The notes: generated by a model from the sequence alone, not told the origin. Numbered from the stretch's first letter, positions 9,010 to 29,521 are shown. The stretch is DNA of 64,000 nucleotides from Candidatus Binataceae bacterium (GCA_963803045.1 CAWDLC010000036.1:69999-133998), one strand, 5' to 3'. Numbers and translations: made by a program.

Positions 9010-10341
9010 TCAATCGAGATGATACCGTTTCCGTTTGTGCCACAGGGTCGAGATGCAGATGCCTAGGGTCGCAGCCGCATCTTCGAGAGTTGGCGCCAAC
9101 GCGAGCACGCGCCGGATGTGCTCCTGCTCGATCTGCTCGAGCGTCGATTGCTCCGGCAGGTTTCCGTGCGGAGTGCTCGATTGGAAAAGGATGTCCGGCA
9201 GATCTTCCTTGCGCAGCGTCGCGCCGCGGCTCAGCACGACTGCGCGTTCGACGGCATTGCGCAGTTCGCGAATGTTGCCCGGCCATGAATAGGACACCAA
9301 AGTTTTGCGAGCTTCGTCCGAAAACTGCAATCCGATGCGGCTATTGCGAGCCGCAGTCTCGGCGAGAAACTTTTCGGCGAGCGGCAGAATATCTTCGGGC
9401 CGTTCGCGCAACGCGGGCACGCGGAGGTTGATGACATTTAGTCTGTAGTATAGGTCGCTGCGAAACCGCTGGGCGTTGATCTCCTGCGGAAGATTGCGGT
9501 TGGTTGCTGCGATGATACGGGCGTCGACTTTGATGGTCTCCTCTCCACCCACGCGTTCAAAACGCTCATCCTCCAAGAAACGGAGGAACTTGGATTGCAA
9601 CGCGGGCGATAGTTCCGAGATTTCGTCGAGGAATACCGAGCCGCCATTTGCCGCTTCAAGGCGCCCGGGCTTGTCTTTGATCGCGCCCGTAAAAGAACCC
9701 TTCACGTGCCCGAAGAGCTCGCTTTCCAGCAGATGCTCCGAAAGCGTCGTGCAATTGACGATGATGAACGGCCGATCGCGGCGCGGACTCCATTCGTGGA
9801 TCTGCCGCGCGAGAACGTTCTTGCCGGTGCCACTTTCCCCAGTAAGCAGGATTGTCGCGTCGCTCGACGCGGCGGCATGAGAAGTCTCTATCAGAGAGCC
9901 GAATTCAGGGCTCCCGGTTGTTAGCAGCGGTACGCCATCGATGGAATTGCGAAGGGCTCGGTTCTCAGTACGCAGTTCCTTTACTTCGAGCGCACGGTCG
10001 ACCGCATGCTGAATCTGATCGAGCGAGAATGGCTTGGTGACGTAGTCGTAAGCCCCGGCTTTAATCGCCGCCACCGCGTTCTGGATCGTGCCATAAGCAG
10101 TCATCAGTATCACGATCGTGGTCGGAAATTTTGCTTTGATCGCGTTGAGCAGCTCGAGGCCGTTCATCTCGGCCATTCGCCAATCACTGAGAACGAGATC
10201 GAACGCTCCATCGCGATCCATCACGGCGAGCGCCTCGCGTCCGTTTTCGGCTACGGCAATCTCGTGCTCCCGGGAACCCAGGAAGCGACCGAGGGCGTCA
10301 CGGATGTTTTTTTCGTCGTCAACGACGAGCAGTTTTGCCAT
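9010..10341 (-). CDS. sigma54-dependent response regulator (REC + AAA+ + Fis-type HTH; NtrC family)
   Basis: Receiver DD..D(LVLSDWRM)..T..K. Walker A GESGTGKN, ESELFGH, GSFTGA, RELRN. C-terminal HTH. Confidence 0.9.
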   Translation of the reverse strand: MAKLLVVDDEKNIRDALGRFLGSREHEIAVAENGREALAVMDRDGAFDLVLSDWRMAEMNGLELLNAIKAKFPTTIVILMTAYGTIQNAVAAIKAGAYDYVTKPFSLDQIQHAVDRALEVKELRTENRALRNSIDGVPLLTTGSPEFGSLIETSHAAASSDATILLTGESGTGKNVLARQIHEWSPRRDRPFIIVNCTTLSEHLLESELFGHVKGSFTGAIKDKPGRLEAANGGSVFLDEISELSPALQSKFLRFLEDERFERVGGEETIKVDARIIAATNRNLPQEINAQRFRSDLYYRLNVINLRVPALRERPEDILPLAEKFLAETAARNSRIGLQFSDEARKTLVSYSWPGNIRELRNAVERAVVLSRGATLRKEDLPDILFQSSTPHGNLPEQSTLEQIEQEHIRRVLALAPTLEDAAATLGICISTLWHKRKRYHLD

Positions 10342-10347
10342 CTAGAT

Positions 10348-11406
10348 TCACCGCGCGCAAGGTAGCTGGATGACAAACGTGCTCCCATTTGTGGAGGAAT
10401 CGATAAATATCCTGCCGCCGTGCGCTTCGACTATCTCTTTGGCTATGGCAAGGCTGAGTCCTGCGGACCCATTCTCAAGTCCTTCCGGCTTCCATTGGGG
10501 ACATTGTTCGAGGAGCACGTCGCGAAGCTCGAGCGGTACTCCGCGCCCTGAATCGGAAACTGATATTCGTAGCGATTGTCCGTCCCGGCCAGCCGAAACC
10601 TCGACTGATCCGCCCTCCGGAGTGAAGCGGATCGCATTGGCGACCAGACTCGATAGCACCCACGAGAGCTTCACCGGATCCCCGTAGCAGTCCAGGGCTC
10701 TCCCGAGGTGGGTCCTGAGCGCGACTTCCTTCTGCGCGGCCTGCAACAAAAACTTTTTCGTCACCGAAGTCACGAGCCTGGCGAAATCAAACGTGACGCT
10801 CCGGACTGCGATCGAAGTGGTTTCATTGCGCGTGACGTTCAAAAGACCATCGGACAAATCGCGGATGCGAGCCAAATCCTCGACCACCGTCTCGATGATT
10901 TCGTGCTGCTTCGGATCGGACGTTTTTCTCTGAAGCAATTCGATTGCGAGCGACAGCGATGTGAGCGGCGTTTTGAGTTCATTTGAAAGCGTAGCGATCA
11001 GGTTCGTGCGCGCGCTTTCCTTGTCACGAAGATAAGTCAAGTCATGAAGAGTGATCATCGTGCCGAACTGAGTGTCATCATCGAGACGCAGCGGTGCAGG
11101 CTTGAGCAGGTACGTATGATCGCGGCCGCGAACGTGCAGACTTACTTCTGCCTGCTGTTCGCCTCGTGGGTAGCCGAGAGCGCGCCGAAGAGCGGCCCGG
11201 ACATTCACGTAGTGAGGATTGTTACTTTCAAGGTCGTAGAACGAACGGCCCAGGATTTCGTGCCGCTCAATCCCAAGTATCAGTGCGGCCTGCTCGTTGA
11301 GATGGGTAACAATACCGTCGAGGTCTATCAGGATCGCAGCGACGTCGAGGGTTTCCAGGATTGCCGCCGTCCTGCCATTTTCACCAATATTGGCTGTGGC
11401 GTCCAT
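10348..11406 (-). CDS. PAS-domain histidine-kinase homologue with Asn at the phospho-acceptor position
   Basis: PAS N-terminus. The H-box reads ATLSNELKTPLTSL (AAT codon = 10981-10983). N box ANAIRFTP, G1 DSGRGV and G2 GSAGLSLAI are intact. Confidence 0.8.
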   Translation of the reverse strand: MDATANIGENGRTAAILETLDVAAILIDLDGIVTHLNEQAALILGIERHEILGRSFYDLESNNPHYVNVRAALRRALGYPRGEQQAEVSLHVRGRDHTYLLKPAPLRLDDDTQFGTMITLHDLTYLRDKESARTNLIATLSNELKTPLTSLSLAIELLQRKTSDPKQHEIIETVVEDLARIRDLSDGLLNVTRNETTSIAVRSVTFDFARLVTSVTKKFLLQAAQKEVALRTHLGRALDCYGDPVKLSWVLSSLVANAIRFTPEGGSVEVSAGRDGQSLRISVSDSGRGVPLELRDVLLEQCPQWKPEGLENGSAGLSLAIAKEIVEAHGGRIFIDSSTNGSTFVIQLPCAR

Positions 11407-11463: not shown

Positions 11464-11937
11464 TCAGTTTATTAGGGCGGAAACGTGATTCTCTTTGTCG
11501 ACGCCGCCGCCCACTTGGACAGCGAGCACTGGACACGGCGCCTGGCGCAGGAGCCTTTCGGCCGAGCTTACCCGAATCCTCTCGAAGAATCCGTGGTGCG
11601 AGCGAGCTGCCACCACGATGAGGTCGACATTCAGCTTTCGGGCAAGCTCCGAGATGGCCTCGTCGAGGATACCGAAATGAACTTCGCTGGTGCACTTTGG
11701 ATACAGGGCGACCGCACGCTTTGTTAACCGGGCAAGCTGGTTTCGGCCGTCCTCTGCGCAATGCTCCAGGAGCTGAGTTGAATCTGACCAGGGGCCTACT
11801 GTGTACGGCAGGGGTTCGATAACGTGCACTAGCACAATCTGTGAATAGTGCTCACGCGCGAGGTCGATTGCGCGTTCGAGCGCTGCGAGCGAACGCCGCG
11901 AGAAGTCAGTGGGCACCAGAATTCTTTCGATTTTCAT
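11464..11937 (-). CDS. universal stress protein (UspA family)
   Basis: MKIERILVPTDFSRRSLAALERAIDLAREHYSQIVLVHVIEP... ATG at 11937; the track ORF starts upstream at 12048, inside kdpC. Confidence 0.85.
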   Translation of the reverse strand: MKIERILVPTDFSRRSLAALERAIDLAREHYSQIVLVHVIEPLPYTVGPWSDSTQLLEHCAEDGRNQLARLTKRAVALYPKCTSEVHFGILDEAISELARKLNVDLIVVAARSHHGFFERIRVSSAERLLRQAPCPVLAVQVGGGVDKENHVSALIN

Positions 11938-11975: not shown

Positions 11976-12542
11976 CTAGTGCAGCGAGTCGAGGGCCAAG
12001 TTTAGCTTCAAAACGTTTACCCCGGGCTCTCCGAAAAGCCCAAGCCAACGGCCGTGCGTATTGTCCTGGATGAGTTGACGTACCGCGTCAGGATTGACTG
12101 CGCGGGCCTTCGCGACGCGTTCGGCCTGCAGATCGGCGGCGGCAGGACTGATATCAGGATCGAGACCGCTGGCCGAGGCAGTAACCAAATCGATCGGGAC
12201 TTGGGAAGCTTGCACGCCTTCGCTCTGCGTCACATCCTTGATCCTCTTACCAACCGAATCGATCAGGCTCTTGCTAGTAGGCCCAGCATTGGAACCACCT
12301 GAGCTGGTTGCATCATAGCCGTTGCCTGCTGCGGACGGCCGGCTGTGGAAGTATTTGGCTGAAGTAAAGCTTTGGCCGATCAGTTCGGAGCCGACGATTG
12401 TGCTATCGCGCGCGATCAGGCTCCCTTCGGCTTGACGCGGAAATATCGCGTAACCAATGGCGGTCATCGCGACCGGATAAAGGAGGCCTAGGAGGAGCGT
12501 CAAAATGACGGTCATTCGAATGGAAATCCATAATTCACGCAT
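11976..12542 (-). CDS. kdpC: K+-transporting ATPase subunit C
   Basis: N-terminal TM, ..SGSNAGPTSK.., VTASASGLDPDISPAAA, GEPGVNVLKLNLAL. ATG at 12542 preceded by AGGAGA. Confidence 0.9.
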   Translation of the reverse strand: MRELWISIRMTVILTLLLGLLYPVAMTAIGYAIFPRQAEGSLIARDSTIVGSELIGQSFTSAKYFHSRPSAAGNGYDATSSGGSNAGPTSKSLIDSVGKRIKDVTQSEGVQASQVPIDLVTASASGLDPDISPAAADLQAERVAKARAVNPDAVRQLIQDNTHGRWLGLFGEPGVNVLKLNLALDSLH

Positions 12543-12555: not shown

Positions 12556-14602
12556 CTACGCAAGATGCAGCGACACGACGATTACGTCAATCAGTTTGAT
12601 TCCGATAAACGGAACGATGAGCCCGCCCACGCCGTAGATTAACAGGTTGCGAGTCAGAATTGCGGCGGCGCTCCAGCGGACGATATTGCACGCCGCGCAG
12701 AGCCAGAGGGATCAGCGCAATGATGATCAGTGCGTTGAAGATCACCGCTGACAGAATAGCGCTCTGCGGAGTTGCTAGATGCATGATATTAAGCGACTGC
12801 AATTCCGGATACGCAAGCAGGAACATCGCCGGGATGATCGCGAAGTATTTCGCTACGTCGTTGGCTATCGAGAAAGTGGTCAGCGCTCCGCGTGTGATTA
12901 GCAACTGTTTTCCGATTTCGACCACTTCCATGATCTTGGTCGGGTTCGAATCGAGATCGACCATGTTACCGGCTTCGCGCGCTGCCTGAGTGCCGGCATT
13001 CATGGCGATTCCAACGTCAGCTTGTGCCAGTGCGGGAGCGTCATTGGTGCCGTCGCCGATCATCGCGACCAGCTTGCCCTGGGCTTGCTCGTCGCGAATG
13101 AGCCGAAGCTTGGTCTCGGGTGTGGCTTCGGCCTGGAAATCATCTACGCCGGACTCGTGGGCAATCGCGGCCGCCGTCAGCGGATTGTCGCCAGTGATCA
13201 TGACGGTCTTCAAGCCCATTGCCCGAAGCCGCGCGAAACGCTCACGGATACCTTCTTTGATAACGTCCTTGAGATGGATGACACCGAGAACGCTAGAGTT
13301 CTCGGCGACGACCAGATGGAGTGCCGCCGCTCCTTGCGATTCGCTCAACGATTCCCGCCAGCTCCGCAGACGGCGTGCCGCCATTGTCCTTGCACGAACT
13401 TGACGATCTGCTCCGTCGCACCCTTGCGGATTCGCCGGCCGTTCAGATCAACGCCGCTCATCCGCGTCGTCGCCGAGAACGGGATGAACTGCGCTTCCTT
13501 GTGGGCGAATTCGCGTCCGCGCAGATTGAAGTCACGTTTGGCCAGCGCCGTGATGGAGCGGCCTTCCGCTGTTTCGTCCGCGAGCGAGGCGAGTTGGGCC
13601 GCGTCGGCGAGCTGCTCGACTGGCACTTCGAGCATCGGTATGAACTCGGTTGCCATCCGATTGCCAAGCGTGATCGTGCCGGTCTTGTCCAGGAGCAAGC
13701 GTATCTACGTCGCCCGCCGCTTCGACCGCGCGCCCCGACATCGCGAGCACATTATGTTGTACGAGGCGATCCATGCCGGCGATGCCGATGGCCGAAAGCA
13801 ATCCGCCAATAGTGGTCGGGATCAGGCAGACCAGCAGCGCCACCAGGACCGGTAACGACAGTGTAGTGCCGCCATAGAGCGCAAAGGGCTGCAGGCTTAC
13901 GCAAACCAGCATGAATACTAGAGTCAACCCCGCGAGCAGAATGCTCAGTGCGATCTCATTGGGCGTTCGCTGGCGCTCCGCGCCCTCGACGAGGGCGATC
14001 ATCCGGTCGAGGAAAGTCTCGCCTGGATTGGCGGTAATCCGAACCTTGATCCAGTCGGAAATAACGGTGGTTCCGCCGGTGACGGCGCTGCGATCACCGC
14101 CGCTTTCCCGGATAACCGGAGCGGATTCGCCGGTGATCGACGCTTCGTTCACAGCGGCGATACCTTCGATGACTTCGCCGTCGCCCGGTATTACTTCACT
14201 GGCTTCGACCCGAACGATGTTGCCGCGTCGCAACGCCGTCGCGGAAACAATTTGAATCGCGCCGCTGGCCGTAACGAGCTTGGCTTTAGTTTCAGTGCGG
14301 GTTTTGCGCAGGTTGTCCGCCTGTGCCTTGCCGCGGCCTTCGGCCATCGCCTCGGCGAAATTGGCAAACAGCAAGGTGAACCACAGCCAAATCGCGATCT
14401 GGAATTCGAAACCCGCCAGGTTGCTTCGGGCGCCGAAGAAGTCGCGGACGAGAATAATCGTCACCGCCAATGCGGTGACCTCGACCACGAACATGACGGG
14501 GTTTCGGACCTGAACGCGCGGGTCGAGCTTTCGGAACGACTCGCCTATCGCGACCCGCACTATGCCACGATCCCAAAGGGAAGGTACTTTTCGATCACTC
14601 AT
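12556..14602 (-). pseudogene. kdpB: K+-transporting P-type ATPase subunit B, interrupted by about 4 single-nt frameshifts
   Basis: [17 protein letters not shown] and [10 protein letters not shown] are all present but spread over three frames. Frame switches near 13697, 13383, 13316 and 12675. Restoring them gives a contiguous KdpB ending ..VVSLHLA* at 12556. Confidence 0.85.
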
Positions 14603-14620: not shown

Positions 14621-16348
14621 CTAGTAGAGGTGTCCCGCCATCATCGCCAGGTGTTCGACAACCGGGCCGAGAGCCCAACTGGCAAAGAAGGTCAGCGCGC
14701 CTACGATCAATACAACTGCGATGAGCAGAATCACAAACACGCTTCCGTTAGTAGGAAATGTTCCGGCGCTCTCCGGCACCCCTTTCTTGTGTACAAGTGA
14801 ACCGGCGATAGCCAGAACCGGAATCATCATCATGAACCGCCCGAAGAGCATCACGAACCCGAGAGTCCAGTTGTAGAAAGGCGTATTAGCGCTCAGGCCC
14901 GCGAATGCTGATCCGTTGTTTGCGGCACTGGAGCTGTAGGCGTACAAAATTTCAGAAAAGCCATGTGGTCCCGGATTCGCAATTCCAGCAAGTCCCAATT
15001 TGTTCGTGACTGCTACGGCCGTTGGCAGAAGTATTACCGCAGGAAAGATCAGGATATAGAGCATCGCCAATTTCATCTCTCGCGATTGAATCTTCTTGCC
15101 CAGGTACTCCGGCGTCCGTCCCACCATCAGGCCGGCGATGAAAACGGTCAGCACCGCCATCACGATCATGCCGGCGAGACCGGTTCCTACTCCCCCGAAG
15201 ACCACTTCTCCCAAGTGCAAATTGAGCAGCGGCACCAGTCCACCGAGTGGGGTGTAGCTGTCATGCATGGAGTTAACCGATCCGTTCGAGGCGTCGGTGG
15301 TGGCCGTCGCCCAGATCGCGGAATCGACGATTCCAAACCGGACCTCCTTGCCCTCCATATTGCCGCCGCTCTGGGTTGCGGTTGCGGATTGATCGATACC
15401 CAGCTTCGCAAACTGCGGATTGCCACGCTGTTCGCTCCAGTTCGCGACTGTTACGCCCATCAGGAAAAGCAATCCCATCGCGGCAAACAGCGCCCAGCCT
15501 TGCCGCCTGTCTCCGGCCATTTTTCCAAAAGTGTGAGTCAAGCCGGCGCCCAGCGCGAAAAGCGCTATCGTCTCGAGCAAGTTGGTCAGCGGAGTGGGAT
15601 TCTCATACGGATGTGCCGAGTTGGCGTTGAAAAAACCTCCGCCATTGGTGCCGAGCTGCTTGATCGCGATCTGCGACGCCACAGGGCCCTGGCCAATCGT
15701 CTGAGTGGCATGCTCAAGAGTCTTTACTTGTGTGTACGCGCTGAAGTTCTGAGGCACTCCTTGCCAGATCAGAATCAGCGTGAACACCACGCAGATAGGC
15801 ACGAGAACCCACAGGGTTGCTCTGGTCAGATCGTACCAAAAGTTTCCGAGAGTTTTCTTCTCGCGATGCACAAAACCGCGAATCACCGCGATCGCGAGGG
15901 CAAGACCTGCCGCTGCCGAGACGAAGTTGTGGAAGGCGAGCCCGGCCATCTGGGTGAGATAGCTCATCGTCGTCTCAGGGGTATAGCTCTGCCAGTTAGT
16001 ATTGGTGGTAAAGCTAGCCGCAGTATTGAACGACGAATCGGTCGAAATTGCGCCTAGCCCTTGCGGATTAAGTGGAAGCAAACCCTGCAAACGCTGGAGT
16101 GCGTATAACACTACCATTCCGACCAGGCTAAAAAGTAACAGCGATGTCGCGTATTCGATCCAAGTCTGTTCCGTCGCTGGATCAACGCCGCACAGCCGAT
16201 AGATAAACCGCTCTACAGGCACAAGTACCGGATCCAGGAAAGTGCGCTCTCCGGCGAACACCTTCGCCATGTAGAGACCGAGCGGAACGCTGATCGCGAT
16301 AATGATCAGGGAGAAGAGCGCGATCTGAATGATTGCATTTGAATTCAT
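14621..16348 (-). CDS. kdpA: K+-transporting ATPase subunit A
   Basis: 575 aa, polytopic, typical KdpA N-terminus MNSNAIIQIALFSLII... Position between kdpF and kdpB. Confidence 0.9.
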   Translation of the reverse strand: MNSNAIIQIALFSLIIIAISVPLGLYMAKVFAGERTFLDPVLVPVERFIYRLCGVDPATEQTWIEYATSLLLFSLVGMVVLYALQRLQGLLPLNPQGLGAISTDSSFNTAASFTTNTNWQSYTPETTMSYLTQMAGLAFHNFVSAAAGLALAIAVIRGFVHREKKTLGNFWYDLTRATLWVLVPICVVFTLILIWQGVPQNFSAYTQVKTLEHATQTIGQGPVASQIAIKQLGTNGGGFFNANSAHPYENPTPLTNLLETIALFALGAGLTHTFGKMAGDRRQGWALFAAMGLLFLMGVTVANWSEQRGNPQFAKLGIDQSATATQSGGNMEGKEVRFGIVDSAIWATATTDASNGSVNSMHDSYTPLGGLVPLLNLHLGEVVFGGVGTGLAGMIVMAVLTVFIAGLMVGRTPEYLGKKIQSREMKLAMLYILIFPAVILLPTAVAVTNKLGLAGIANPGPHGFSEILYAYSSSAANNGSAFAGLSANTPFYNWTLGFVMLFGRFMMMIPVLAIAGSLVHKKGVPESAGTFPTNGSVFVILLIAVVLIVGALTFFASWALGPVVEHLAMMAGHLY

Positions 16349-16364: not shown

Positions 16365-16454
16365 TCACAAGTTCTCAGGATGTAACATCGCGTAAACCAG
16401 ATAGACTGTCAGCGCGACAGCGCATATCAACCCCAAGAAATTCTCTGCGCTCAT
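16365..16454 (-). CDS. kdpF: K+-transporting ATPase subunit F (29 aa)
   Basis: MSAENFLGLICAVALTVYLVYAMLHPENL*, compare the E. coli KdpF ..YLVYALINAEAF tail. Below the ORF-track size cutoff. Confidence 0.75.
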   Translation of the reverse strand: MSAENFLGLICAVALTVYLVYAMLHPENL

Positions 16455-16534
16455 AGACTCTCGCATCCTTGGACGTAGGCGAGCGCGATCAGGAAAAACG
16501 CCACCGTCCCAATCAGTACGACTATGTCCATCAT
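16451..16534 (-). CDS. 27-aa hydrophobic peptide, first ORF of kdp operon 1
   Basis: MMDIVVLIGTVAFFLIALAYVQGCESL*. AAGGAA RBS-like run upstream. Its stop overlaps the kdpF ATG (ATGA). Analogous ORF at 22135..22230. Confidence 0.5.
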   Translation of the reverse strand: MMDIVVLIGTVAFFLIALAYVQGCESL

Positions 16535-16633: not shown

Positions 16634-16649
16634 AGCAAGGGCTGTGCCT
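16634..16649 (-). promoter_or_regulatory. sigma54 -24/-12 promoter-like element upstream of kdp operon 1
   Basis: The minus strand reads AGGCACAGCCCTTGCT, against the consensus TGGCAC-N5-TTGCW with correct GG/GC spacing. About 100 nt upstream of the 16534 start. Confidence 0.5.
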
Positions 16650-20190: not shown

Positions 20191-22008
20191 TCAGCCTCCG
20201 AACGGAATAGGACCGAAATGATCCGCCAGTGGTCCGAGTGCGGCGGCCGGCAGGAACAGCAACGCACCGATGATTACGATGGTGCTGAACAGAAGACATC
20301 CGAAGGTAAAGGTGTCGTCGCGCAAAGTACCCAGTCCGAATGGCGAACTCTTCTTCATACCGAGAAAGCCGGCCATCGCAATCGGCGCGATAATCGGCAG
20401 AAATCGCCCGAACATGATCACAAAGCCAGCGGCGATATCCCATGGCACCGCTTCAGGCGCCGGACTCGGGTTATTGTTGAGGCCATAGGTGACTCCCAGG
20501 CCATCGAAAGCGGAGCCGTTGTTAGCTGAGTCAGAGGAGAACTGGTAAACGATTTGGGAGAATCCATGCGGCCCCGGATTGCTCTCCGCTTTGATCCCCC
20601 AATTGGTTGCGGCAAACAGGCCCGTCGGCAGAAGTATTACCAGCGGATGCACAAGCAGCGCGATCATGGCGAGCTTAACTTCCCGCGGGCCGATCTTCTT
20701 TCCTAGATACTCCGGCGTGCGGCCGACCATCTGACCGACGACGAAGATTCCGATGATCAGGAATAGGAGCATGTTGACCATCCCGACGCCTTTGCCGCCG
20801 AATATGCAGTTAACCCACATCCCGAACATTGGCGACAATCCGGCGATTGGGTTCAGGCTGTCGTGTTCACAGATAATCGCGCCGCAGGTGAAATCGACAG
20901 TAAGGGCGGCGAAGGTGGAACCGGCTGAAGTCCCAAAGCGAAGTTCCTTCCCTTCGAGATTGCCAAGATGCTGATCGACCGGCAGTCCGGCCACGGCAGG
21001 CAGAGTAATAACCCGCTTGCCGCCCGGCGCTGTTGCGCTTGCGATCTCGAAGTTTTGCGGGCCGGGGTGAGCCGTCAAACCGGGATTGGGTTTAAGGGTG
21101 TCGAAGTAGATCGTCCAGAGGACGGTGCCGACAAGCAGGGTCAGCATCACGGCGAAGATCACGACCGAATGGCGGCGGCGGCTGAGCATCCGGCCGTACA
21201 TTAGAACAAGGGCCATCGGGAACAACATAAACGATGAGGTAGTGGCGATGTTGCTTCCAGCAGTGGGATTCTCAAACGGATGGGCCGAGTTCATCCCGAA
21301 GAAACCGCCGCCATTGGTGCCGAGCATTTTCATCGGCACAAACGCGGCCAACGGACCGACCACGATCGTCTGCTGCTTAGGCTGGTTGTTGTTATCAGTG
21401 CCCATTGCGGCGGGCTCGAGCGTGTTGACCTGGTAGTCGCTTTGAAAGGTCATCGGCATGCCCTGGATCAGAAACAAGATGCTCAGGACGAACGCGGCCG
21501 GAAGAAACAGGTAGATAACCACCCGCCACATATCGACGAAGAAGTTGCCGAGGTGCGAGTCGCTCCGGAATGCGCGGATGATCGCGGTCAAAGCGCACAG
21601 GCCGATGGCTGCCGACAGAAAGAACATCGGTAAACAGAAAAAGATCTGACTGAAATTCGAAAAGGACTGATCCCCAGAGTAATGTTGAATATCGGTGTTC
21701 GTGCTGAAGGAAATAACTGTGTTGAAGACAGTGCTTGGAGAAAGCATGCCGAGGCCCCTCGGATTGAGCGGCATCCACGGCTGCAACGACAGGACCAGAA
21801 AACCAAATAGGTAGAGCAGGGTGTTGAAAATCAGTAGCGCCACCGTGTACTGCTTCCAATTCTGATGACCGGAGTCGAGCTGCTTCTCGAACCATTCAAA
21901 TACGGGCCAGGGTCGATAATTCCCATCCATGATGCGAGCCATAAAGCCGCTCAAGGGGACCGCGAGGATTACGGGGAGTACTATTACTGTAATGGGCAAA
22001 AGCCACAT
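20191..22008 (-). CDS. kdpA: K+-transporting ATPase subunit A, second copy
   Basis: 605 aa, polytopic, KdpA-like throughout. Flanked by kdpF and kdpB. Confidence 0.9.
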   Translation of the reverse strand: MWLLPITVIVLPVILAVPLSGFMARIMDGNYRPWPVFEWFEKQLDSGHQNWKQYTVALLIFNTLLYLFGFLVLSLQPWMPLNPRGLGMLSPSTVFNTVISFSTNTDIQHYSGDQSFSNFSQIFFCLPMFFLSAAIGLCALTAIIRAFRSDSHLGNFFVDMWRVVIYLFLPAAFVLSILFLIQGMPMTFQSDYQVNTLEPAAMGTDNNNQPKQQTIVVGPLAAFVPMKMLGTNGGGFFGMNSAHPFENPTAGSNIATTSSFMLFPMALVLMYGRMLSRRRHSVVIFAVMLTLLVGTVLWTIYFDTLKPNPGLTAHPGPQNFEIASATAPGGKRVITLPAVAGLPVDQHLGNLEGKELRFGTSAGSTFAALTVDFTCGAIICEHDSLNPIAGLSPMFGMWVNCIFGGKGVGMVNMLLFLIIGIFVVGQMVGRTPEYLGKKIGPREVKLAMIALLVHPLVILLPTGLFAATNWGIKAESNPGPHGFSQIVYQFSSDSANNGSAFDGLGVTYGLNNNPSPAPEAVPWDIAAGFVIMFGRFLPIIAPIAMAGFLGMKKSSPFGLGTLRDDTFTFGCLLFSTIVIIGALLFLPAAALGPLADHFGPIPFGG

Positions 22009-22134: not shown

Positions 22135-22230
22135 CTAAATCTTCTCGCAAGCGACGATAAACGCGAAACAAAGGCCGAGACCTAGCAGACCCAAGGCCAA
22201 TGTTGCCGGAAGCCAGATTGCGACGTTCAT
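22135..22230 (-). CDS. 31-aa hydrophobic peptide upstream of kdpF in operon 2
   Basis: MNVAIWLPATLALGLLGLGLCFAFIVACEKI*. Same position and same C-E-x-(L/I) ending as 16451..16534. Confidence 0.45.
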   Translation of the reverse strand: MNVAIWLPATLALGLLGLGLCFAFIVACEKI

Positions 22231-22772
22231 TTTCCGTTCCTCCATGGCGCCATAGCTGGCCCATCTCGATCCCCTGAAGCAAGTTTAGTGCTGCCCGAAA
22301 AGTCGGATGGTAATGGACAATAAATAACCTTATTGCCAAAGGTGCTGCCTTGATCGCGTGCGAGTGCGAAAATACTCGACACCCCCGCTTGATCAGAATT
22401 AAATATTAAATGTCAGAAGGAAGACCGCGACACGAATACAATGCCGCATTCTCGCCTTTTGTAGCCAATGGCAAGGTCAGCATCTATTACAGATGTCGAT
22501 TGAATGTAGACGCTAAGGTGTTAGATTCTGTTGGGTAAGGTTATTTGTCGGAAGATCGATATATTTCACTTATCCTGTTAACACACACCTCGATCCAGAT
22601 AGAGGACAAGCCCGACCAACGCAACGAGCAGTAACAGACCAACTGGCATAACCACCACCTATCTTCGATCGCTGGTGCGGTCCATCCTCCGCAGGGTCCG
22701 AGCTAGAGTCGCGATCCGTGCGGGCGGGAGCCCGTAGTATGCTCGCCATAGTCACTCAATCAGTGTGCGCAA

Positions 22773-23144
22773 TCAGCGCGCCGCGACCGATGCCGAAGGG
22801 TTTGGAACAGCAGCGATACGAATCGAGCGAGCGGTAGTCTCATCAGTGACAGCGGCTGGGTGATCTAACCTCAGGATGGCGATGCTTTCTGGCCGAACAC
22901 GTTCGATCAATTCGTGAGCGATTCGCGTAGCGGCATCGTCCGCGACGCTGAGGTCAATCTTTAGACGCTCGACCAGGTCGAGGACGAACTCGCGACCGCG
23001 GTAAAGCCGCTGGCGTTCACGGCTGGTCGAACGGGCCGTGCGGCGAACTTCGGTCAAGTCGAAGTCGGACAAGTTCAAGCCTTCGGCGGCTTCGGTGAAG
23101 CGGTCGAGAGTGCCTGGATCGATTACTAATTCGATTCTCTTCAT
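22773..23144 (-). CDS. PII-like (GlnB-fold) signal protein
   Basis: MKRIELVIDPGTLD...TEVRR..(T-loop-like RTARSTSRERQRLYRGREF)..KIDLSVADD.. follows the PII pattern MK.IE.I..P..LD...TEV.G.G....YRG.E....KIE.VV.D. Alternative ATG at 23156. The track start 23201 lies inside the putative promoter. Confidence 0.55.
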   Translation of the reverse strand: MKRIELVIDPGTLDRFTEAAEGLNLSDFDLTEVRRTARSTSRERQRLYRGREFVLDLVERLKIDLSVADDAATRIAHELIERVRPESIAILRLDHPAAVTDETTARSIRIAAVPNPSASVAAR

Positions 23145-23196: not shown

Positions 23197-23212
23197 TGCA
23201 TGGCGCGTGCCG
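23197..23212 (-). promoter_or_regulatory. sigma54 -24/-12 promoter-like element upstream of the PII-like gene / kdp operon 2
   Basis: The minus strand reads CGGCACGCGCCATGCA (GGCACG-N4-ATGCA, correct spacing). About 40-55 nt upstream of the candidate ATGs. Confidence 0.4.
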
Positions 23213-23419: not shown

Positions 23420-23435
23420 TGGCGCAAGGGTTGCT
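23420..23435 (+). promoter_or_regulatory. sigma54 -24/-12 promoter-like element upstream of the small Cys-protein genes
   Basis: TGGCGCAAGGGTTGCT, one mismatch to TGGCAC-N5-TTGCW. 42 nt upstream of the ATG at 23477. Confidence 0.5.
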
Positions 23436-23476: not shown

Positions 23477-24015
23477 ATGAAAGCAACCGTGACACAGCGT
23501 CGTAATCTTTCTTCTATCGGGATCATCGCGCCAGTTGCGAAAACTGGGATTCAGATTCCCTTGCCAGTTTCCGCGAATGGATACCGCGAGTTGTATCGCA
23601 CGCATACCTCGCTAGGGCGCGGGTATTCCGGGAGTGCTTTTTCGCCTGAGGAGATGAAACACAACTTTGCGATCCGAGCGCTTGAGAAGCCGACTCTTTT
23701 GCACGCCGGCCATATATCTACTTGTGCGTGCGATGCCGCCAGATATTTCTGGTCAACGAGCACCGCGGCTCGATTGTAGCGATCGATCGCGATCGAAATC
23801 CGTTGCCGGAGCCCGAAAACTCAAGACAGGTTGAGACATTTGCTGAAGGTCCATGCCCCAGCTTCAAGTTCGCTCCGAAATTCCCCCGACAGGGTCGACC
23901 AGCGGCGACCGTCAAATCGAGCATGGTGAAGCTTCGCTTATTGAGGGCTTTGGCTTCTCTCACCAAGAGAGCTCAGGCCATGCTAGCGAGTACGCCTCAA
24001 GAACATCTTTTCTAG
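23477..24015 (+). pseudogene. small Cys-motif protein, copy 1 (frameshifted near 23705)
   Basis: ..MKHNFAIRALEKP.. in one frame continues as ..RPYIYLCVRCRQIFLVNEHRGSIVAIDRDRNPLPEPENSRQVETFAEGPCPSF in another. Paralogue of 24039..24509. Confidence 0.6.
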
Positions 24016-24038
24016 CAGCCTCAACTCAGGATAGTCCC

Positions 24039-24509
24039 ATGAGACGCGAGATACTCGGAGCGAACTCAGTTGGTGGAAGCGTAGCATTGTCCGCGACGCA
24101 GGAAGGCGCAGGACGCGCTAGGCGGAAGATGGCCTTCACCGCGGAGGAAACACGCCATCACTTCGCGATTGAGGCCCTGGAGAAACCCGGGTCCTTCCGC
24201 CCACAGCCGTATCTATATACGTGCGTTCGCTGCAGGTGGATTTTTCGTATCAATGATTCGCGCGGTTCGATCATTGCCTTGGACGGCTTGGGCAGGCATC
24301 TACCCGAACCCGAGAATTCCAAACGCATAGTCACCTTTCACCGAGGACCGTGTCCTGCCTTTCCAGTCTTCGAGTACCTGATCCCTGAGGTTGAGCGCGA
24401 AAGTCGACTTCTTAAGTATATGTCGAGAATTGTCGATGTGTTATGCGGTCTCATGGATGTTGGTAGATCATCGAAGCCGACTCGCAGGCAGGAAACGAGG
24501 GCGGCTTAG
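24039..24509 (+). CDS. small Cys-motif protein, copy 2 (unknown function)
   Basis: ..TRHHFAIEALEKPGSFRPQPYLYTCVRCRWIFRINDSRGSIIALDGLGRHLPEPENSKRIVTFHRGPCPAF... ATG at 24039. CxxC...CP motif. Confidence 0.55.
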   Translation: MRREILGANSVGGSVALSATQEGAGRARRKMAFTAEETRHHFAIEALEKPGSFRPQPYLYTCVRCRWIFRINDSRGSIIALDGLGRHLPEPENSKRIVTFHRGPCPAFPVFEYLIPEVERESRLLKYMSRIVDVLCGLMDVGRSSKPTRRQETRAA

Positions 24510-24746
24510 CACTCGGTATGCATCAAGGGCGTACACTTGGCCTCAAGCGGCGCGACCTGGCTTTTCTCTTCACCGTCGCATCATTTCAAATTGAAAAGAG
24601 CTGAACGGGCGATTCGAAATGTCGCCGCTGCGCGCTCAAAAAAATCGTTGGCCGGTATGATAGTTGGCGACGGCACACTTGATGCTTTCTTCCAAGGTAT
24701 GTCCGGCATCATCCCATTGAGGAAGTCGGGGTTACAAGACAGCTCG

Positions 24747-25226
24747 ATGGCGCAGCCGAATCTGAGGCTGGTCAGGAGTGACTGCAGAAGTCACATCCAG
24801 GCGATTGTTCGGACTCCAGATGAATCACCAAAGACAGCGGTGATGGTCTGTCTAACTGCCCGTAGTTCAGGCAACAGTGAACTGTTGCGCAAGGCCTACG
24901 GCGGCGCGCGCGAACATGGCGGCGAGTTCTACGCGGTCATAGTCGATTCGCCGCACACTCGATTTGGAAAGGCTCAGGTTCGTGCGCTGATCGACGACGC
25001 AATCCTCGCTACCTTCTTCGGCGCGAAAATCGTACGCCTCGAATCGTCCGACTTGGTCGGCGCTCTACTTCGGTTCGCGCGACAATGTAACGTTGGCCGG
25101 ATCTTCGTTACTCGGGACCGCCCGATTCTGTTCTCTCGACTATTTGGGCTTACTGTTTATTCCGATCTGCTGAGCCGCGGTGAAGGTTTTCGCATCGACG
25201 TTGTCGGGTTTGAACGCAGGAACTGA
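24747..25226 (+). CDS. stand-alone KdpD-type USP domain protein
   Basis: VMVCLTARSSGNSELLRKAYGGAREHGGEFYAVIVDSP..AKIVRLESSDLVGALLRFARQCNVGRIFV..IDVVGF parallels the USP segment of E. coli KdpD (ILLCIGHNTGSEKLVRTAARLA..WHAVYVETP..). ATG chosen at MAQPNL. Confidence 0.65.
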   Translation: MAQPNLRLVRSDCRSHIQAIVRTPDESPKTAVMVCLTARSSGNSELLRKAYGGAREHGGEFYAVIVDSPHTRFGKAQVRALIDDAILATFFGAKIVRLESSDLVGALLRFARQCNVGRIFVTRDRPILFSRLFGLTVYSDLLSRGEGFRIDVVGFERRN

Positions 25227-25229: not shown

Positions 25230-26246
25230 TTGAATAAGGGGCCGACGGTGGACAAAGAACACGAAGATCTGGATCGTCCGATACCGCGCCCTGCTGACGA
25301 TTTCGTTCCCCTGCTCGAATCGAACGATCCCGTGATGCAGCGACTGCTGGAGAAGGCGAAGCGCGCAGCCGCGAGCGACGCGACGATTCTCCTCACTGGC
25401 GAGAGTGGTACCGGCAAGGACGTTCTTGCGCATCAGATCCACCGATGGAGCCTTCGCGCCGAATGTCCATTTGCGACCGTCAACTGTACAACTCATTCTG
25501 AACATCTTCTCGAGAGCGAGTTGTTTGGCCATACGTGCGGTGCTTTCGCCGGCGCAATCAAGAATAAGCCTGGAAGCCTCGAAGCCGCCCACGGCGGATC
25601 CATCTTCCTCGATGAAATTGCAGATCTGACTGCACCCCTTCAGACCAAACTTCTGCACTTCATCAAGGAACAGACGTTCGAAAGGATGGGGAGTGAAAAC
25701 ACTATAACGGTTGATACTCGAATCATCGCCGCGTCGAACCATGACCTGGCTTCGGAAGTTGTGGCACGACGATTCCGCGAGGATCTGTACTATCGACTTG
25801 GCGTGATCACTTTGCGAGTTCCCGCCTTGCGGGAACGTCCAGCAGACGTCCTGCCCTTGACGATTCGAATGCTTGCCGGCGCCACCGTCCGTAACCACCG
25901 TCCGGGTCTGCGTCTTTCACCCGAAACATCATCGGCACTGGTGCGTTATCGATGGCCAGGAAATATCCGTGAGTTGCGCAATGTCATTGAGCGCGCGGTC
26001 GTACTGTGCCCGAGCGACCTTGTGACGCCTGAGTATCTGCCTGACCTGCTTTGTAACGATTCACGCTTGACCACTACCCCATCGGCAAGTCTCGATGACA
26101 TCGAGCGCGAACATATCATTTGCGTTATGGCGGAAAGCCCCACGCTTGAAAGTGCCGCACACAAGCTGGGCATCAATGTCGCGACGCTGTGGCGCAGGCG
26201 CAAACGGTACGGACTCTCTTCAACTCACGATGTCCCGAGGAATTAG
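25230..26246 (+). CDS. receiver-less sigma54 enhancer-binding protein (AAA+ + HTH only)
   Basis: GESGTGKDVLA, ESELFGH, GAFAGA (variant of GAFTGA), RELRN, C-terminal HTH LGINVATLWRRRKRYGL. Only about 35 aa precede the AAA+ core. Alternative GTG start at 25248 after AAGGGG. Confidence 0.85.
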   Translation: MNKGPTVDKEHEDLDRPIPRPADDFVPLLESNDPVMQRLLEKAKRAAASDATILLTGESGTGKDVLAHQIHRWSLRAECPFATVNCTTHSEHLLESELFGHTCGAFAGAIKNKPGSLEAAHGGSIFLDEIADLTAPLQTKLLHFIKEQTFERMGSENTITVDTRIIAASNHDLASEVVARRFREDLYYRLGVITLRVPALRERPADVLPLTIRMLAGATVRNHRPGLRLSPETSSALVRYRWPGNIRELRNVIERAVVLCPSDLVTPEYLPDLLCNDSRLTTTPSASLDDIEREHIICVMAESPTLESAAHKLGINVATLWRRRKRYGLSSTHDVPRN

Positions 26247-26372: not shown

Positions 26373-26841
26373 ATGAAAACAGAAAGAATTCTGATGGCTA
26401 CCGACTTTTCGCCGCGCTCACTCGCGGCGCTCGAGCGTACAATCGATCTCGCACGTGAGCACGACTCCGAGATTGTACTCGTGCACGTGATTGAGTCCTT
26501 ACCGTACGGGGTAGGCCACTCGTCAGATCCAACGAAGCTCCTGGAGCATCTAGCAGAGGACGGCCGAAACCAGCTTGCGGGGTTCACGAAGCGCGCGCTC
26601 AGCCTATACCCGAAATGCACCAGCGAACTCCATTTCGGTATCGTCCACCAAGTCATCTCGGAACTTGCCCGAAAGCTGGACATTGATCTCATCCGTGGTG
26701 GCGGCTCGCTCGCAGCGCGGATTGCTCGAAAGGATCCTGGGGAGCCTGGCGGAAAAGCTGGTGCGCCAAGCGCCGTGTCCAGTGCTCGCTGTTCAGGTCG
26801 ACGGCGGAGGCCAGAAAGAAAATCACGCGGCATCAGCCTGA
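26373..26841 (+). pseudogene. universal stress protein, third copy, frameshifted near 26693
   Basis: MKTERILMATDFSPRSLAALERTIDLAREHDSEIVLVHVIES... After DIDLI the reading continues in another frame as VVAARSQRGLLERILGSLAEKLVRQAPCPVLAVQV (one extra C in ATCCGTGG). Confidence 0.75.
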
Positions 26842-27014
26842 GCGCTGGGGAACTTAGGGCCAAGTCCATTCTCTTGCTCAGGAGAGGGCCGCTTTTCCTA
26901 TTTCACTTTCCTCCACGGGACTAGCAGGCTGTTGAGGAAAGGGTTTGATTGCTCAGTTTCATCGCGGTCTTGGAGGAAGGGAGTTATCGCTCCGGCGCGA
27001 AGCCTTTCGAAAAC

Positions 27015-29306
27015 ATGGATCTGCAAGTCATTCTGTTGTTGGTCGCTGGACTGTTGATCGCGGTCGCGCTCACCGCGCCGCTGGCTGATCGCCTCGGTTT
27101 GTCGCCGACCGTCCTGCTGGCATTGGTCGGCATAGCGATCGGACTGACGTCGATGTACCTGATGCGCGCTGAAGGCCTCGGCAGGTTCGCTTCGGTGGCA
27201 AACGTGATCGTCAATCTGCCGGTTCATCCCGACGCGTTCCTCTACATCTTCTTGCCGATCTTGGTGTTCGACGCCGCGTTGAACATCGAGGTGCGGCGCA
27301 TGATGGAAGACGCCGCGCCGATTCTGCTGCTGGCGGTCGTGGCGGTGCTGGTTGCCACCGTCACAATCGGCGCGGCGCTAATCCCGCTGGTGGCCGTTCC
27401 AGCCACCGCTTGCTTCATGCTGGGTTCGATCGTGGCCACCACCGATCCGGTCGCGGTGATCGCCATCTTCCGCGATGTCGGCGCGCCGTCGCGCCTGAAC
27501 CGGCTGGTCGAAGGCGAAAGCCTTCTGAACGACGCCGTCGCCATCACGCTATTCGTAATGTTCATGGGGACCTTGATCGGCGGGCAGCGACTCGGTTTGG
27601 GTGCTGCGGCAGTGAGTTTCGTACGTAGCTTCGCGGGCGGCATCGCCGTTGGCTATATTGGCGCACGCCTCATCGCGGGTGTCCTGCGATGGCTGCTCGA
27701 CATGCGTTTGGCGCAGGTTACGCTGACACTCGCGCTGCCGTATCTCGTCTACATCGTCGCCGAGCGGCAGCTGGGGGTTTCCGGAGTAGTTGCAACCCTG
27801 ACCTCGGGCCTTGTGATGAGCGGGATGGCGCAGCGGCGCATGTCGCCGGATGACTGGCATTTTCTGCACGAGCTATGGGAGCAGTTGGCATTCTGGGCCA
27901 GCTCGTTGATTTTCGTTTTCGCCTCACTGCTCGTCCCGCGGATGCTGTTCAACATAGGTTGGCACGACATGGTGTTGCTCGCCGTGCTGATCGGCGCGGC
28001 GATGTTGGCGCGCGCGGTCGTTGTGTTCGGCTTACTTCCTCTGATGGCCACGTTGCACCTGAGCCAGACCGTCAGCAATCGTTTCAAGGCTGTAATTCTT
28101 TGGGGCGGTTTGCGCGGCGCACTCACGCTGGTGCTGGCGCTCTCGGTGACTGAGAACACCAAGATCGCGCCGGATGTTCAACGCTTCGTCGCCATCCTCG
28201 CGACTGGTTTTGTCCTCTTCACGTTGCTCGTCAATGGCACGACGCTTCGGTTGCTGATTCGTCTTGTTGGCCTCGATCGGCTTTCCACGGTCGACCAGGC
28301 GCTGCGCGATCAAGTACTGAGACTGTCGCGCGATCGCATTTCAGACACCGTAAGGACAATCGGTACCGACTATGAATTCCCTGACGCTCTCATCTCCGAT
28401 GTGATTCGCAACCGCGCCGTCGCCGAACCCGACTTGCCCACTGATGGTGCGGCGCTGCGCTCCGGCGATGCCGGCGACTACCAGCTCCTCCTCGGTCTGG
28501 CCGCGCTAGCCAGTCACGAGCGCGAGCTCGTGTTGCATCATTTTGGCGAACGAACCATGTCCGGACGCATCGTCGAGGAGATGCTCGCCTTTGTCGGACG
28601 GCTGGTCGATCGCATTCGTGCGGGGGACCCGGCTGAGTATCTCCGCACCGCGAGACACATTGTCGATTTCTCGCCGCGGTTTCGATTTGCTCTCTGGGCC
28701 CACCGCCATCTCAGGATTGAGGGACCGCTGGTCGATCGCCTCGCCGATCGCTTCGAGTCTCTGTTGGTCCAGCAAATCGTGCTGAAGGAGCTCGAACCTT
28801 ACATCGAAGAAAAGTTGGTGCCGCTGTTGGGCGAGAAGGTGGCGTCGATGCTGCGCGAGGTGCTGCGCGGCCGTCACGAAATGACCGGCGCGGCGCTGGA
28901 CGCATTGCGCCAGCAGTATCCCGCGTATGCCGAGGAACTCGAACGGCGCATCCTGCACAAAACCTGGCTGCGCCGCGAAGACGTGGAATACCGCACCCTG
29001 TTCGAAGACGGTGTGATTGGTCCCGAGCTGTATAGCGCCCTGCGCCGCGAGGTGAAGCTCACCCGCACCGAGGTCGAGGTGCGGCCGCGTCTCGATCTCG
29101 GTCTTGAGACCCGGCAGCTCATTTCCAAGGTGCCGATATTTGCCAAGCTCACCAAGGTGCAGCTCGATACCATGGCGCGCCTGTTGCGGCCGCGGTTCGC
29201 AGTTCCCGGCGAGCAGCTCATTCGTGACGGCGACCACGCCGACGCGATGTACTTCATCTCGTCGGGCAGCGTGGAGGTGGAAGTGTGGGTCAGAAGATCC
29301 GGCTGA
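27015..29306 (+). CDS. CPA1 (NhaP-type) Na+(K+)/H+ antiporter with long cytoplasmic tail and the start of a cNMP-binding domain
   Basis: About 400-aa polytopic domain (ATTDPVAV, ESLLNDA motifs). The tail ends ..FAKLTKVQLDTMARLLRPRFAVPGEQLIRDGDHADAMYFISSGSVEVEV. ATG at 27015 (MDLQVILLL). Confidence 0.8.
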   Translation: MDLQVILLLVAGLLIAVALTAPLADRLGLSPTVLLALVGIAIGLTSMYLMRAEGLGRFASVANVIVNLPVHPDAFLYIFLPILVFDAALNIEVRRMMEDAAPILLLAVVAVLVATVTIGAALIPLVAVPATACFMLGSIVATTDPVAVIAIFRDVGAPSRLNRLVEGESLLNDAVAITLFVMFMGTLIGGQRLGLGAAAVSFVRSFAGGIAVGYIGARLIAGVLRWLLDMRLAQVTLTLALPYLVYIVAERQLGVSGVVATLTSGLVMSGMAQRRMSPDDWHFLHELWEQLAFWASSLIFVFASLLVPRMLFNIGWHDMVLLAVLIGAAMLARAVVVFGLLPLMATLHLSQTVSNRFKAVILWGGLRGALTLVLALSVTENTKIAPDVQRFVAILATGFVLFTLLVNGTTLRLLIRLVGLDRLSTVDQALRDQVLRLSRDRISDTVRTIGTDYEFPDALISDVIRNRAVAEPDLPTDGAALRSGDAGDYQLLLGLAALASHERELVLHHFGERTMSGRIVEEMLAFVGRLVDRIRAGDPAEYLRTARHIVDFSPRFRFALWAHRHLRIEGPLVDRLADRFESLLVQQIVLKELEPYIEEKLVPLLGEKVASMLREVLRGRHEMTGAALDALRQQYPAYAEELERRILHKTWLRREDVEYRTLFEDGVIGPELYSALRREVKLTRTEVEVRPRLDLGLETRQLISKVPIFAKLTKVQLDTMARLLRPRFAVPGEQLIRDGDHADAMYFISSGSVEVEVWVRRSG

Positions 29307-29521
29307 ACCCCGGCGACTTCTTCGGCGAGATGGGGCTCGTTACCGGCCAGCGCCGCCAGGGAGATGTCCACGCGCGCGGCTACTGTCAGCTCCTGGTACT
29401 AAGAGAGGTGGACTTCAAAAATCTCTTGCGAAGCGATCACGACATCCAAATGCAAATCGCCACGGTGGCAAGCGCACGCAGCATGATGAACCAGCGCGCA
29501 AGCGGCGTGAGATCGGAATAG
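29285..29521 (+). pseudogene. remainder of the cNMP-binding domain in a shifted frame
   Basis: GQKIRLNPGDFFGEMGLVTGQRRQGDVHARGYCQLLVLREVDF completes the beta-roll started at about 29150. Frame change at about 29286. Confidence 0.7.

Follow-up and report, generated by a model that had tools for sequence, protein, structure and literature searches.

The Kdp system for high-affinity K+ uptake is a textbook target of a simple two-component system, which in Escherichia coli is KdpD/KdpE. KdpB is inhibited by the N-terminal domain of KdpD, which acts as an atypical Ser kinase and, in a survey of 5495 species, was "preserved in almost all versions" of KdpD (PMC11018627). A precedent for another wiring comes from Desulfovibrio vulgaris Hildenborough, in which in-vitro binding of DVU3334, a sigma-54 response regulator, to the kdp promoter region was seen by DNA-affinity-purified chip (DAP-chip) (Rajeev 2011, PMC3333781; regulon table in PMC4641369). 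In this bacterium KdpD is "split into two ORFs" (open reading frames), with the sensor of K+ and the UspA domain in DVU3336 and the PAS kinase domains in DVU3335; the DVU3334 motif is also present in D. vulgaris Miyazaki and Syntrophobacter fumaroxidans, and the D. vulgaris kdp operon is the target of three different response regulators (PMC3333781). Here we describe a Kdp island found on 64,000 nt of DNA, hereafter the window, from an uncultured member of the Binataceae (GCA_963803045.1, CAWDLC010000036.1:69999-133998), and compare it with the loci of relatives, which are designated by L-numbers. Genes were called by Pfam.

Our data indicate that the system of the window is a reduced derivative of a known type and that its sigma-54 wiring is not new in kind, since D. 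vulgaris provides a precedent and one Binataceae locus, L024, has the D. vulgaris layout. An earlier reading of the DNA alone (hereafter the original prediction) knew of no characterised example of such a circuit; this has to be corrected in view of DVU3334, which bound the kdp promoter region by DAP-chip and whose operon contains the split KdpD. What is notable here is the dismantled sensor side, with no KdpD Ser-kinase domain, a kinase devoid of its phospho-acceptor His, and a regulator paralogue without the GAFTGA motif accompanied by an orphan USP domain.

Evidence for enhancer-dependent transcription of kdp

Two kdp operons lie in tandem on the minus strand of the window, where the original prediction had placed them. 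The kdp2 operon (16534-11976) continues into usp1 (UspA family, 11464..11937, minus strand), the gene of a soluble PAS-HisKA-HATPase protein with Asn in its H box (10348..11406, minus strand, from Pfam and the sequence; hereafter the PAS protein) and that of an NtrC-type response regulator with REC, AAA+ and HTH_8 domains (9010..10341, minus strand, from Pfam and an alignment of ~25 orthologues; hereafter the regulator), usp1 following kdpC2 after 38 nt and the next two gaps being 57 and 6 nt. On the plus strand, two genes of Cys-containing proteins are followed by those of a stand-alone KdpD-type USP domain, a receiver-less activator (Act2), a further UspA-family protein and an NhaP-type antiporter with a cyclic-nucleotide-binding (cNMP) domain. 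The genes of both sets, and the three gaps, had been correctly given in the original prediction, but its operon labels were ambiguous: the operon that runs on into the regulator gene is 16534-11976, and the one facing the divergent set is 23144-16910. The regulator is 87-93% identical to proteins of Candidatus Binatus and Binataceae metagenome-assembled genomes (MAGs) from peat and soil. A survey of relatives for kdp genes next to sigma-54 activator genes, suggested along with the original prediction, revealed that this synteny is kept in ~30 Binataceae loci, many of them with tandem kdp, in which the regulator gene comes either immediately after kdpC or behind the PAS-protein gene. The order kdp-(usp)-PAS protein-regulator is kept within L001-L033, and the divergent module of the window recurs in L033, L137, L141 and L144.

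The -24/-12 element of kdp2, P1 (AGGCACagcccTTGC, 16635..16649, minus strand), was recognized by its pattern and its conservation. RGGCAY-N5-TTGCT scores best among the sites of 21 out of 26 orthologous kdpA upstream regions and is located 220-420 nt before kdpA, and the P1-type element lies ~30-100 nt upstream of the first small ORF. GG and GC are constant in these elements and the spacer is variable (AGCCC, GCTTT, AGCAA, AGCTC, CGCTG, TCTTG); the chance of an equally good score in a random 600-nt stretch is ~0.1. P1 has the GG-N10-GC that serves as the criterion for a -24/-12 promoter, which is not the case for the variant element proximal to kdp1 (CAGCACtaaacTTGC, 22279..22293, minus strand), where AG replaces GG at -24. 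This AG is kept in the AGCAC-N5-TTGC elements of L002, L012, L029 and L137, and the kdp1 element sits behind a different palindrome, ACATTTAAA..TTTAAATGT. Three further -24/-12 elements were found, P2 before the P-II-like gene (CGGCACgcgccATGC, 23198..23212, minus strand), P3 before the Cys-protein genes (TGGCGCaagggTTGC, 23420..23434, plus strand) and P4 before the USP-like gene (CGGCACacttgATGC, 24671..24685, plus strand); P2 and P3 are kept in 6-8 loci and P4 in 6, among them L033, L137, L139, L143 and L144.

Enhancer sites are expected 80-150 bp upstream of such promoters, and conserved TTTCA/TGAAA repeats that could serve as such occur at a suitable distance. Perfect TTTCA-N3-TGAAA palindromes are found only twice in the 64 kb, 75-120 nt upstream of P2/P3 and P4: one lies between the divergent P2 and P3 (23290..23302), as a candidate enhancer, and the other (24584..24596) 75 nt upstream of P4. 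In relatives these palindromes lengthen to GCATTTCA-N3-TGAAATGC. The candidate enhancer of P1 is the inverted repeat AAAATGAAG-N11-TTTCATTTT (16700..16740), kept in 13 loci. A simple scan of both kdp upstream regions gave no sigma-70-consensus site. The enhancer-dependent (sigma-54) transcription of kdp put forward in the original prediction is well supported by these comparisons, because ~30 loci keep the synteny and the GG-N10-GC elements with TTTCA/TGAAA repeats upstream.

The regulator, its paralogue and the PAS protein

The sigma-54 activation domain PF00158 was detected in the regulator (E = 6.8e-66) as well as in Act2 (25230..26246, plus strand), the receiver-less AAA+-HTH protein of the divergent set (E = 4.5e-62), and HTH_8 is present in both. 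The regulator has the loop sequence GSFTGA, which is among the tolerated GAFTGA variants (PMC4641369), and its residues D8/D9, D53, T81 and K103 are intact; these residues and G(S/A)FTGA are kept throughout ~25 regulator orthologues. Act2 is a close paralogue of the regulator, a point that the original prediction did not make: identity across AAA+ and HTH is 59%, the recognition helix is almost the same, and the Walker A, Walker B and Arg-finger motifs of Act2, read from the sequence, are intact. The loop of Act2 is GAFAGA in the window and GAFDGA in L033, L137 and L141, and replacement of the GAFTGA Thr is outside the variants deemed compatible with activation (PMC4641369). A metagenome scan with Act2 patterns returned generic enhancer-binding proteins (at most 48% identity) and no orthologues.

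The Act2 gene is translationally coupled to the USP-like gene (24699..25226, plus strand, with a start codon at 24699 or 24747), which ends 3 nt ahead of it. Compared with the USP domain in the KdpD of L024, the USP-like protein shows 39% identity (E = 5e-22); its family comprises ~167 proteins of 160-200 aa labelled KdpD by JGI. Its gene keeps its own -24/-12 element and palindrome even away from kdp (L139, L143). A gene for a small cNMP-binding protein is divergent from the USP-like gene in L137 (8296-8769), L139 (8172-8699) and L143 (8160-8627), the last two having no kdp nearby. Binding of cyclic di-AMP (c-di-AMP) by the USP-like protein is not claimed, as the motif published for Firmicutes, (A/G/C)xSxSxxN(Y/F) (PMC8214093), was not seen in this protein by eye.

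The H-box region of the PAS protein reads LSNELKTPL, compared with SHELRTPL in the usual HisKA domain. The phospho-acceptor position is occupied by Asn in 11 loci (the window, L001, L003, L005, L007, L009, L011, L014, L015, L032 and L033), by Ser in L002 and by Gln in five (L016-L019 and L021), His being retained in five others (L012, L020, L023, L024 and L029); in L022, L026, L027 and L031 the interval between kdpC and the regulator gene contains no kinase gene. The N box and the G1 box (DSGRG) are there in the protein of the window, the G2 box is GLSL for GLGL, and this last box is degenerate across the His-less PAS proteins. From its sequence the PAS protein is probably a pseudo-kinase: the His substitutions and the gene losses, together with the receiver residues that are kept, suggest that the kinase function of the cognate protein has been lost several times and that the receiver is still phosphorylatable by design. 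The "PAS kinase homologue" of the original prediction is consequently right as to its domains and not as to the phospho-acceptor His. Likewise, of the "split KdpD-like parts" from which the circuit was said to be built, only the stand-alone USP protein is demonstrably KdpD-derived; the PAS protein is a generic HisKA protein without the catalytic His. In L141, ~3 kb past the Act2 orthologue, a DUF4118-HisKA-HATPase kinase of the KdpD membrane-domain type is encoded at 13384-15134 together with a GerE-type response regulator. This kinase is a candidate for an alternative phosphodonor; nothing comparable is found within the window.

Search for KdpD and KdpE

Residues 1-230 of E. coli KdpD gave no better than E = 2.2 against the window by tblastn, and no PF02702 domain was detected there; the same query matches L024 at E = 4e-74. 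No match was obtained in the window with the membrane/GAF sensor of E. coli KdpD (residues 396-660), and no OmpR-type KdpE is present in the 64 kb, in which E. coli KdpE matches the receiver domain of the regulator only. The absence of both the KdpD N-terminal domain and an OmpR-type KdpE, noticed in the original prediction, is thereby borne out for the window, whose sole HisKA protein is the soluble one with Asn at the His position. Of 33 Binataceae loci, L024 was the only one in which the KdpD N-terminal domain was found in the 10 kb upstream of the regulator. The gene order in L024 is kdpABC, a Cys protein, a 386-aa KdpD consisting of PF02702 (E = 2.5e-93) and Usp, a 601-aa HAMP-PAS-HisKA-HATPase kinase with its His, and the sigma-54 regulator.

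Gene content of the island

All four Kdp subunits are encoded in both operons according to Pfam, and DKTGT is found in both KdpB once the frame is corrected. The kdp2 operon comprises, all on the minus strand, a conserved hydrophobic 27-aa ORF (MMDIVV...GCESL, 16451..16534), kdpF2 (29 aa, PF09604, E = 5.8e-9, 16365..16454), kdpA2 (intact, 575 aa, 14621..16348), kdpB2 (frameshifted, delimited by sequence comparison, ~12556..14602) and kdpC2 (189 aa from the ATG at 12542, 11976..12542). On the same strand, the order in the kdp1 operon is a conserved hydrophobic 31-aa ORF (MNVAIWLP...ACEKI, 22135..22230), kdpF1 (26 aa, PF09604, 22044..22124), kdpA1 (intact, 605 aa, 20191..22008), kdpB1 (frameshifted, by sequence comparison, 17953..20132) and kdpC1 (338 aa with a ~150-aa insertion, 16910..17926), with the P-II-like gene (22773..23144, minus strand) and that of a 23-aa membrane peptide (22578..22649, minus strand) ahead. 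The insertion in kdpC1 splits the KdpC domain into two Pfam stretches, and the length of 338 aa is kept in L137, L141 and L144. A conserved GC hairpin directly past kdpC1 (16861..16900, minus strand), read from the sequence and not picked up by the simple scan that gave no sigma-70-consensus site, is probably the terminator between the two operons.

Directly before kdpF, the two operons and almost all of the related loci have a conserved hydrophobic ORF of 27-31 aa, ending in (G/A)CE(S/K)(L/I) and matching no Pfam family, which may encode a leader peptide or an additional Kdp subunit. In L002, L012, L029 and L141 the first kdpA match is an orphan, unaccompanied by kdpB or kdpC, and a complete kdp operon lies downstream of it. 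The orphan kdpA of relatives is preceded by the AGCAC-N5-TTGC variant element, and in L029 its immediate upstream neighbour is the end of an ammonium-transporter gene.

The product of the P-II-like gene (123 aa) reaches 18 bits with the Pfam P-II profile (PF00543), below the cut-off of 25 bits, and its homologues are labelled P-II family in the source databases. By eye, a T-loop-like LYRGREF is seen and a GDGKIF-type B-loop is absent; the protein appears to belong to a divergent P-II group specific to the Binataceae. Its gene stands ahead of kdp in the window, L002, L005, L014, L015, L033, L137, L141 and L144, and in L022 and L027 a gene whose product has, as read from the sequence, a similar C-terminus precedes kdp. 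The P-II-like gene was rejected as a strict kdp marker, since in L132 it is found with the same promoter away from kdp; the 23-aa membrane peptide also occurs in this locus.

The two Cys proteins are paralogues (protein 1, frameshifted, 23477..24015; protein 2, 24039..24509; both on the plus strand). Their family comprises ~200 close small proteins; a profile search among 1.8 billion representatives collected 222 small proteins and no fusions, and no Pfam domain was found in eight of the longest of these. Residues H102, C124, C127 and C167 (numbering of ORF 23853-24509) are invariant. The AlphaFold model of this full 218-aa ORF was discarded as unusable, with a predicted local distance difference test score (pLDDT) of 52; that of the 88-aa core, obtained with a deeper alignment, reached 86 and places the CxxC on a beta-hairpin. 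Foldseek of the core against the PDB gave nothing significant, the best hits being 32-column zinc-ribbon matches to RNA polymerase I subunit A12.2 (E at least 0.6), so that the modelled core appears to resemble zinc ribbons locally, not significantly. A member of the Cys family is encoded between kdpC and kdpD in L024.

The divergent set ends with usp3 (UspA family, 26373..26841) and the gene of the NhaP-type cation/H+ antiporter with its C-terminal cNMP-binding domain (26949..29521), both on the plus strand, called by Pfam and frameshifted. On the other side of the island a fragment of an OmpL-like beta-barrel porin gene (PF07642, 8483-8989, minus strand) abuts the stop codon of the regulator gene; it comprises only the C-terminal half (profile positions 200-339 of 339) and seems to be what is left of a truncated gene. 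A DUF1646 membrane protein (E = 1.2e-78) is encoded immediately beyond the island, also on the minus strand (6824-7954). Farther away, mobile-element-like genes at 35249-37181 and 53892-54926 (both on the plus strand) encode ParB_N with an N6/N4 DNA methylase, a DUF5681 protein and, by eye, an IS-type-integrase-like ORF. An Rfam scan of the window matched no family and so gave no riboswitch, that for c-di-AMP included, and a tRNA scan gave no tRNA.

Proposed circuit and alternatives

The circuit that we propose starts from the observed gene content, the synteny, the conservation of promoters and repeats, and the residue substitutions. The kdp2 operon would be transcribed from P1, and since it encodes its own NtrC-type regulator, we propose a positive autoregulation. 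Once phosphorylated, probably by another donor than the PAS protein, the regulator most likely binds the TTTCA/TGAAA repeats 75-120 bp upstream of P1-P4; it would then activate the sigma-54 holoenzyme at P1, raising the level of the pump and of itself, and at P2, P3 and P4, from which the P-II-like gene, the Cys-protein genes, and the genes of the USP-like protein and Act2 would respectively be expressed. The kdp1 operon would be served by its own variant element, AGCAC-N5-TTGC, preceded by a related palindrome. From the same observations we infer how proteins and sites are paired, what the His-less protein and Act2 do, and what is sensed.

As to descent, the system would derive from a Desulfovibrio-type arrangement of kdpFABC, a short KdpD (Ser-kinase domain and USP), a PAS kinase and a sigma-54 regulator, which is still that of L024. 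In the clade of the window the KdpD Ser-kinase domain would have gone from the locus, and the PAS kinase would have shed its membrane/HAMP part and its His. The laboratory mutants NtrB H139N and EnvZ H243V are kinase-dead and phosphatase-active. Without its His, the PAS protein is probably a phosphatase or a binding modulator of the regulator and not its phosphodonor, and it may lower or gate the activity of the regulator in response to a cytoplasmic signal perceived by its PAS domain. Act2 would be a duplicate of the regulator that shares its DNA specificity, has lost the sigma-54 contact and is co-transcribed with the orphan KdpD-USP; it probably competes at the shared enhancers or forms mixed rings with the regulator, and the USP-like protein made from the same transcript could control it. 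Altogether, we consider it likely that the island is a Binataceae (Binatota) system of high-affinity K+ uptake under enhancer-dependent control, with the core circuit, the descent and the Act2 module proposed here.

Several observations weigh against this proposal. The -24/-12-type elements reported in the original prediction exist and are conserved in orthologous loci, but TGGCAC-N5-TTGC-like matches in the whole window are not above chance (74 seen, 66 expected), and the element proximal to kdp1 has AG in place of the near-invariant GG at -24. A tblastn search with E. coli RpoN gave no rpoN, neither in the 64 kb nor in the loci retrieved from relatives. The partner "kinase" cannot autophosphorylate at the canonical His, so that another phosphodonor would be needed for the regulator. 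For DVU3334 the evidence is in-vitro binding only, the E. coli reporter having given no meaningful result (PMC3333781), and in the present organism the case is one of sequence comparison. Finally, both kdpB frames are interrupted as sequenced.

This last point raises the question of a decaying, non-functional locus, with real frameshifts, a dead kinase, a crippled Act2 and a circuit idle in this organism. At least 10 single-base frameshifts, none of them mentioned in the original prediction, are found in ~20 kb: insertions at ~18914 and ~18353 in kdpB1, at ~13700, ~13393, ~13315 and ~12672 in kdpB2 and at ~12550 at the kdpB2/kdpC2 junction (by comparison with L001, 93% identical in nucleotides), one frameshift each in usp3 (~26694) and nhaP (~29286), and a 1-nt deletion in the gene of Cys protein 1 (~23698). 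They are outside homopolymer runs, other large genes of the window, such as that of AcrB (1097 aa) and both kdpA, are unbroken, and the truncated porin fragment directly downstream of the regulator gene would fit the same picture. Nevertheless, the changes specific to the window show that kdpB2 (12 nonsynonymous to 41 synonymous) is constrained like kdpA2 (3:12) and the regulator gene (10:21), the proteins have, once their frames are corrected, 96-98% identity to intact orthologues, also past each shift, kdpB is intact in L001 and L137, and similar split genes occur in the long-read MAG loci L006, L008, L032 and L033. For these reasons the frameshifts are most likely assembly errors. Moreover, the His-to-Asn and GAFTGA changes are kept across species and hence are not the decay of this one genome, which makes a decayed locus a very unlikely explanation. 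Positions 21522-23678 of the window are matched at 100% by an independent contig, L145 (run ERR11596056), and the end of this contig 20 nt before the frameshift of Cys protein 1 fits a sequence ambiguity at this place. Neither KdpA2 nor either of two frameshifted KdpB fragments was on record when looked up by exact sequence. The inserted bases at 18914, 18353 and 13315 stand in ATCT/GATC contexts (GGAT[C]TG, GATCT[C]A and CCAT[C]TGG, respectively), which may reflect a systematic basecalling or methylation-related error pattern.

The wiring itself could also be read otherwise, kdp being controlled by a canonical KdpD/KdpE, or by a short KdpD, whose genes lie in another part of the genome, and the sigma-54 part being a second, stress-related input or acting mainly on the accessory genes. 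Our view is limited to 64 kb of the genome, three response regulators target the kdp operon of D. vulgaris, and P2 and P4 also precede P-II-like and USP-like genes that are not beside kdp (L132, L139, L143), all of which agrees with such an arrangement. On the other hand, the regulator gene stands directly downstream of kdpC, after usp and the PAS gene, in the window and directly behind kdpC or the PAS gene in ~30 loci, P1 immediately precedes the kdpF-proximal ORF in 21 out of 26 cases, no sigma-70-consensus site was found upstream of kdp, and L024 is alone among the 33 loci in having the KdpD N-terminal domain within 10 kb upstream of the regulator. Control of kdp by a KdpD encoded elsewhere therefore seems quite improbable to us, and enhancer-dependent control by the regulator of the island is the interpretation that we retain.

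A bolder extension of our proposal, which we hold to be rather doubtful, is that the control of Kdp in this clade has left His-Asp phosphotransfer and KdpD altogether. The cognate kinase may then be a selected pseudo-kinase which merely dephosphorylates or sequesters the regulator, and Act2, no longer able to contact sigma-54, may determine the output, either through occupancy of the enhancers that it shares with the regulator or as a poison of the regulator hexamer, under the control of the orphan KdpD-USP as a small-molecule or protein sensor. Other partners, such as the P-II-like or the zinc-ribbon-like Cys proteins, may replace the KdpD Ser kinase in switching KdpB off.

The lineage is widespread in peat and soil, and its kdp loci have no KdpD N-terminal domain and no working cognate kinase, yet the arrangement of sigma-54 promoters and enhancers in them is strongly conserved. 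They offer a natural experiment in which the sensor module has been dismantled and the output kept, and through which the roles of pseudo-kinases and of enhancer-binding paralogues without GAFTGA could be approached. Although the organism is uncultured, the parts of the system are small and soluble and could be tested in E. coli.

Comparison with known systems

PspF and HrpS are receiver-less enhancer-binding proteins with an intact GAFTGA, controlled in trans by PspA and HrpV, respectively. Act2 resembles them in having AAA+ and HTH parts only and in being coupled to a small possible controller, and differs from them by the GAFAGA or GAFDGA of its orthologues. For the PAS protein, the nearest likeness is the natural pseudo-histidine kinase DivL of Caulobacter (PMC4211667), which likewise combines a HisKA/HATPase fold with the lack of the phospho-acceptor His, maintained by selection beside a phosphorylatable response regulator. 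However, DivL has Tyr at the His position and senses a single-domain regulator in a cell-cycle network, whereas among the PAS proteins Asn, Ser and Gln have arisen in separate clades of one orthologous group, the gene being lost in some lineages.

With the E. coli KdpD/KdpE system the island shares the target, kdpFABC, and a USP domain of the KdpD kind. It differs in having neither the KdpD N-terminal domain nor the DUF4118/GAF membrane sensor nor an OmpR-type regulator, and its promoters are of the -24/-12 type instead of the sigma-70 type. The short KdpD of Deinococcus geothermalis (Silberberg 2024, PMC11018627) provides another parallel, as a KdpD-derived USP free of a histidine-kinase domain, and L024 has such a short KdpD. 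In short KdpDs, however, the functional part is the N-terminal atypical Ser kinase, kept almost everywhere, whereas the window keeps the USP alone.

By its layout, the island is most readily compared with DVU3334-DVU3339.1 of D. vulgaris. In both, a PAS kinase and a sigma-54 response regulator end the kdp operon, the regulator targets, or would target, its own operon, and there is no OmpR-type KdpE; L024 reproduces the full D. vulgaris layout, including the KdpD-N/Usp protein. In contrast to D. vulgaris, the window is devoid of PF02702 and has a plain UspA-type gene between kdpC and the kinase gene in place of the KdpD-N/Usp protein, and its PAS protein is short, soluble and His-less. The kdp operon of the window is furthermore duplicated, and a receiver-less paralogue of the regulator and an orphan USP domain have been added.

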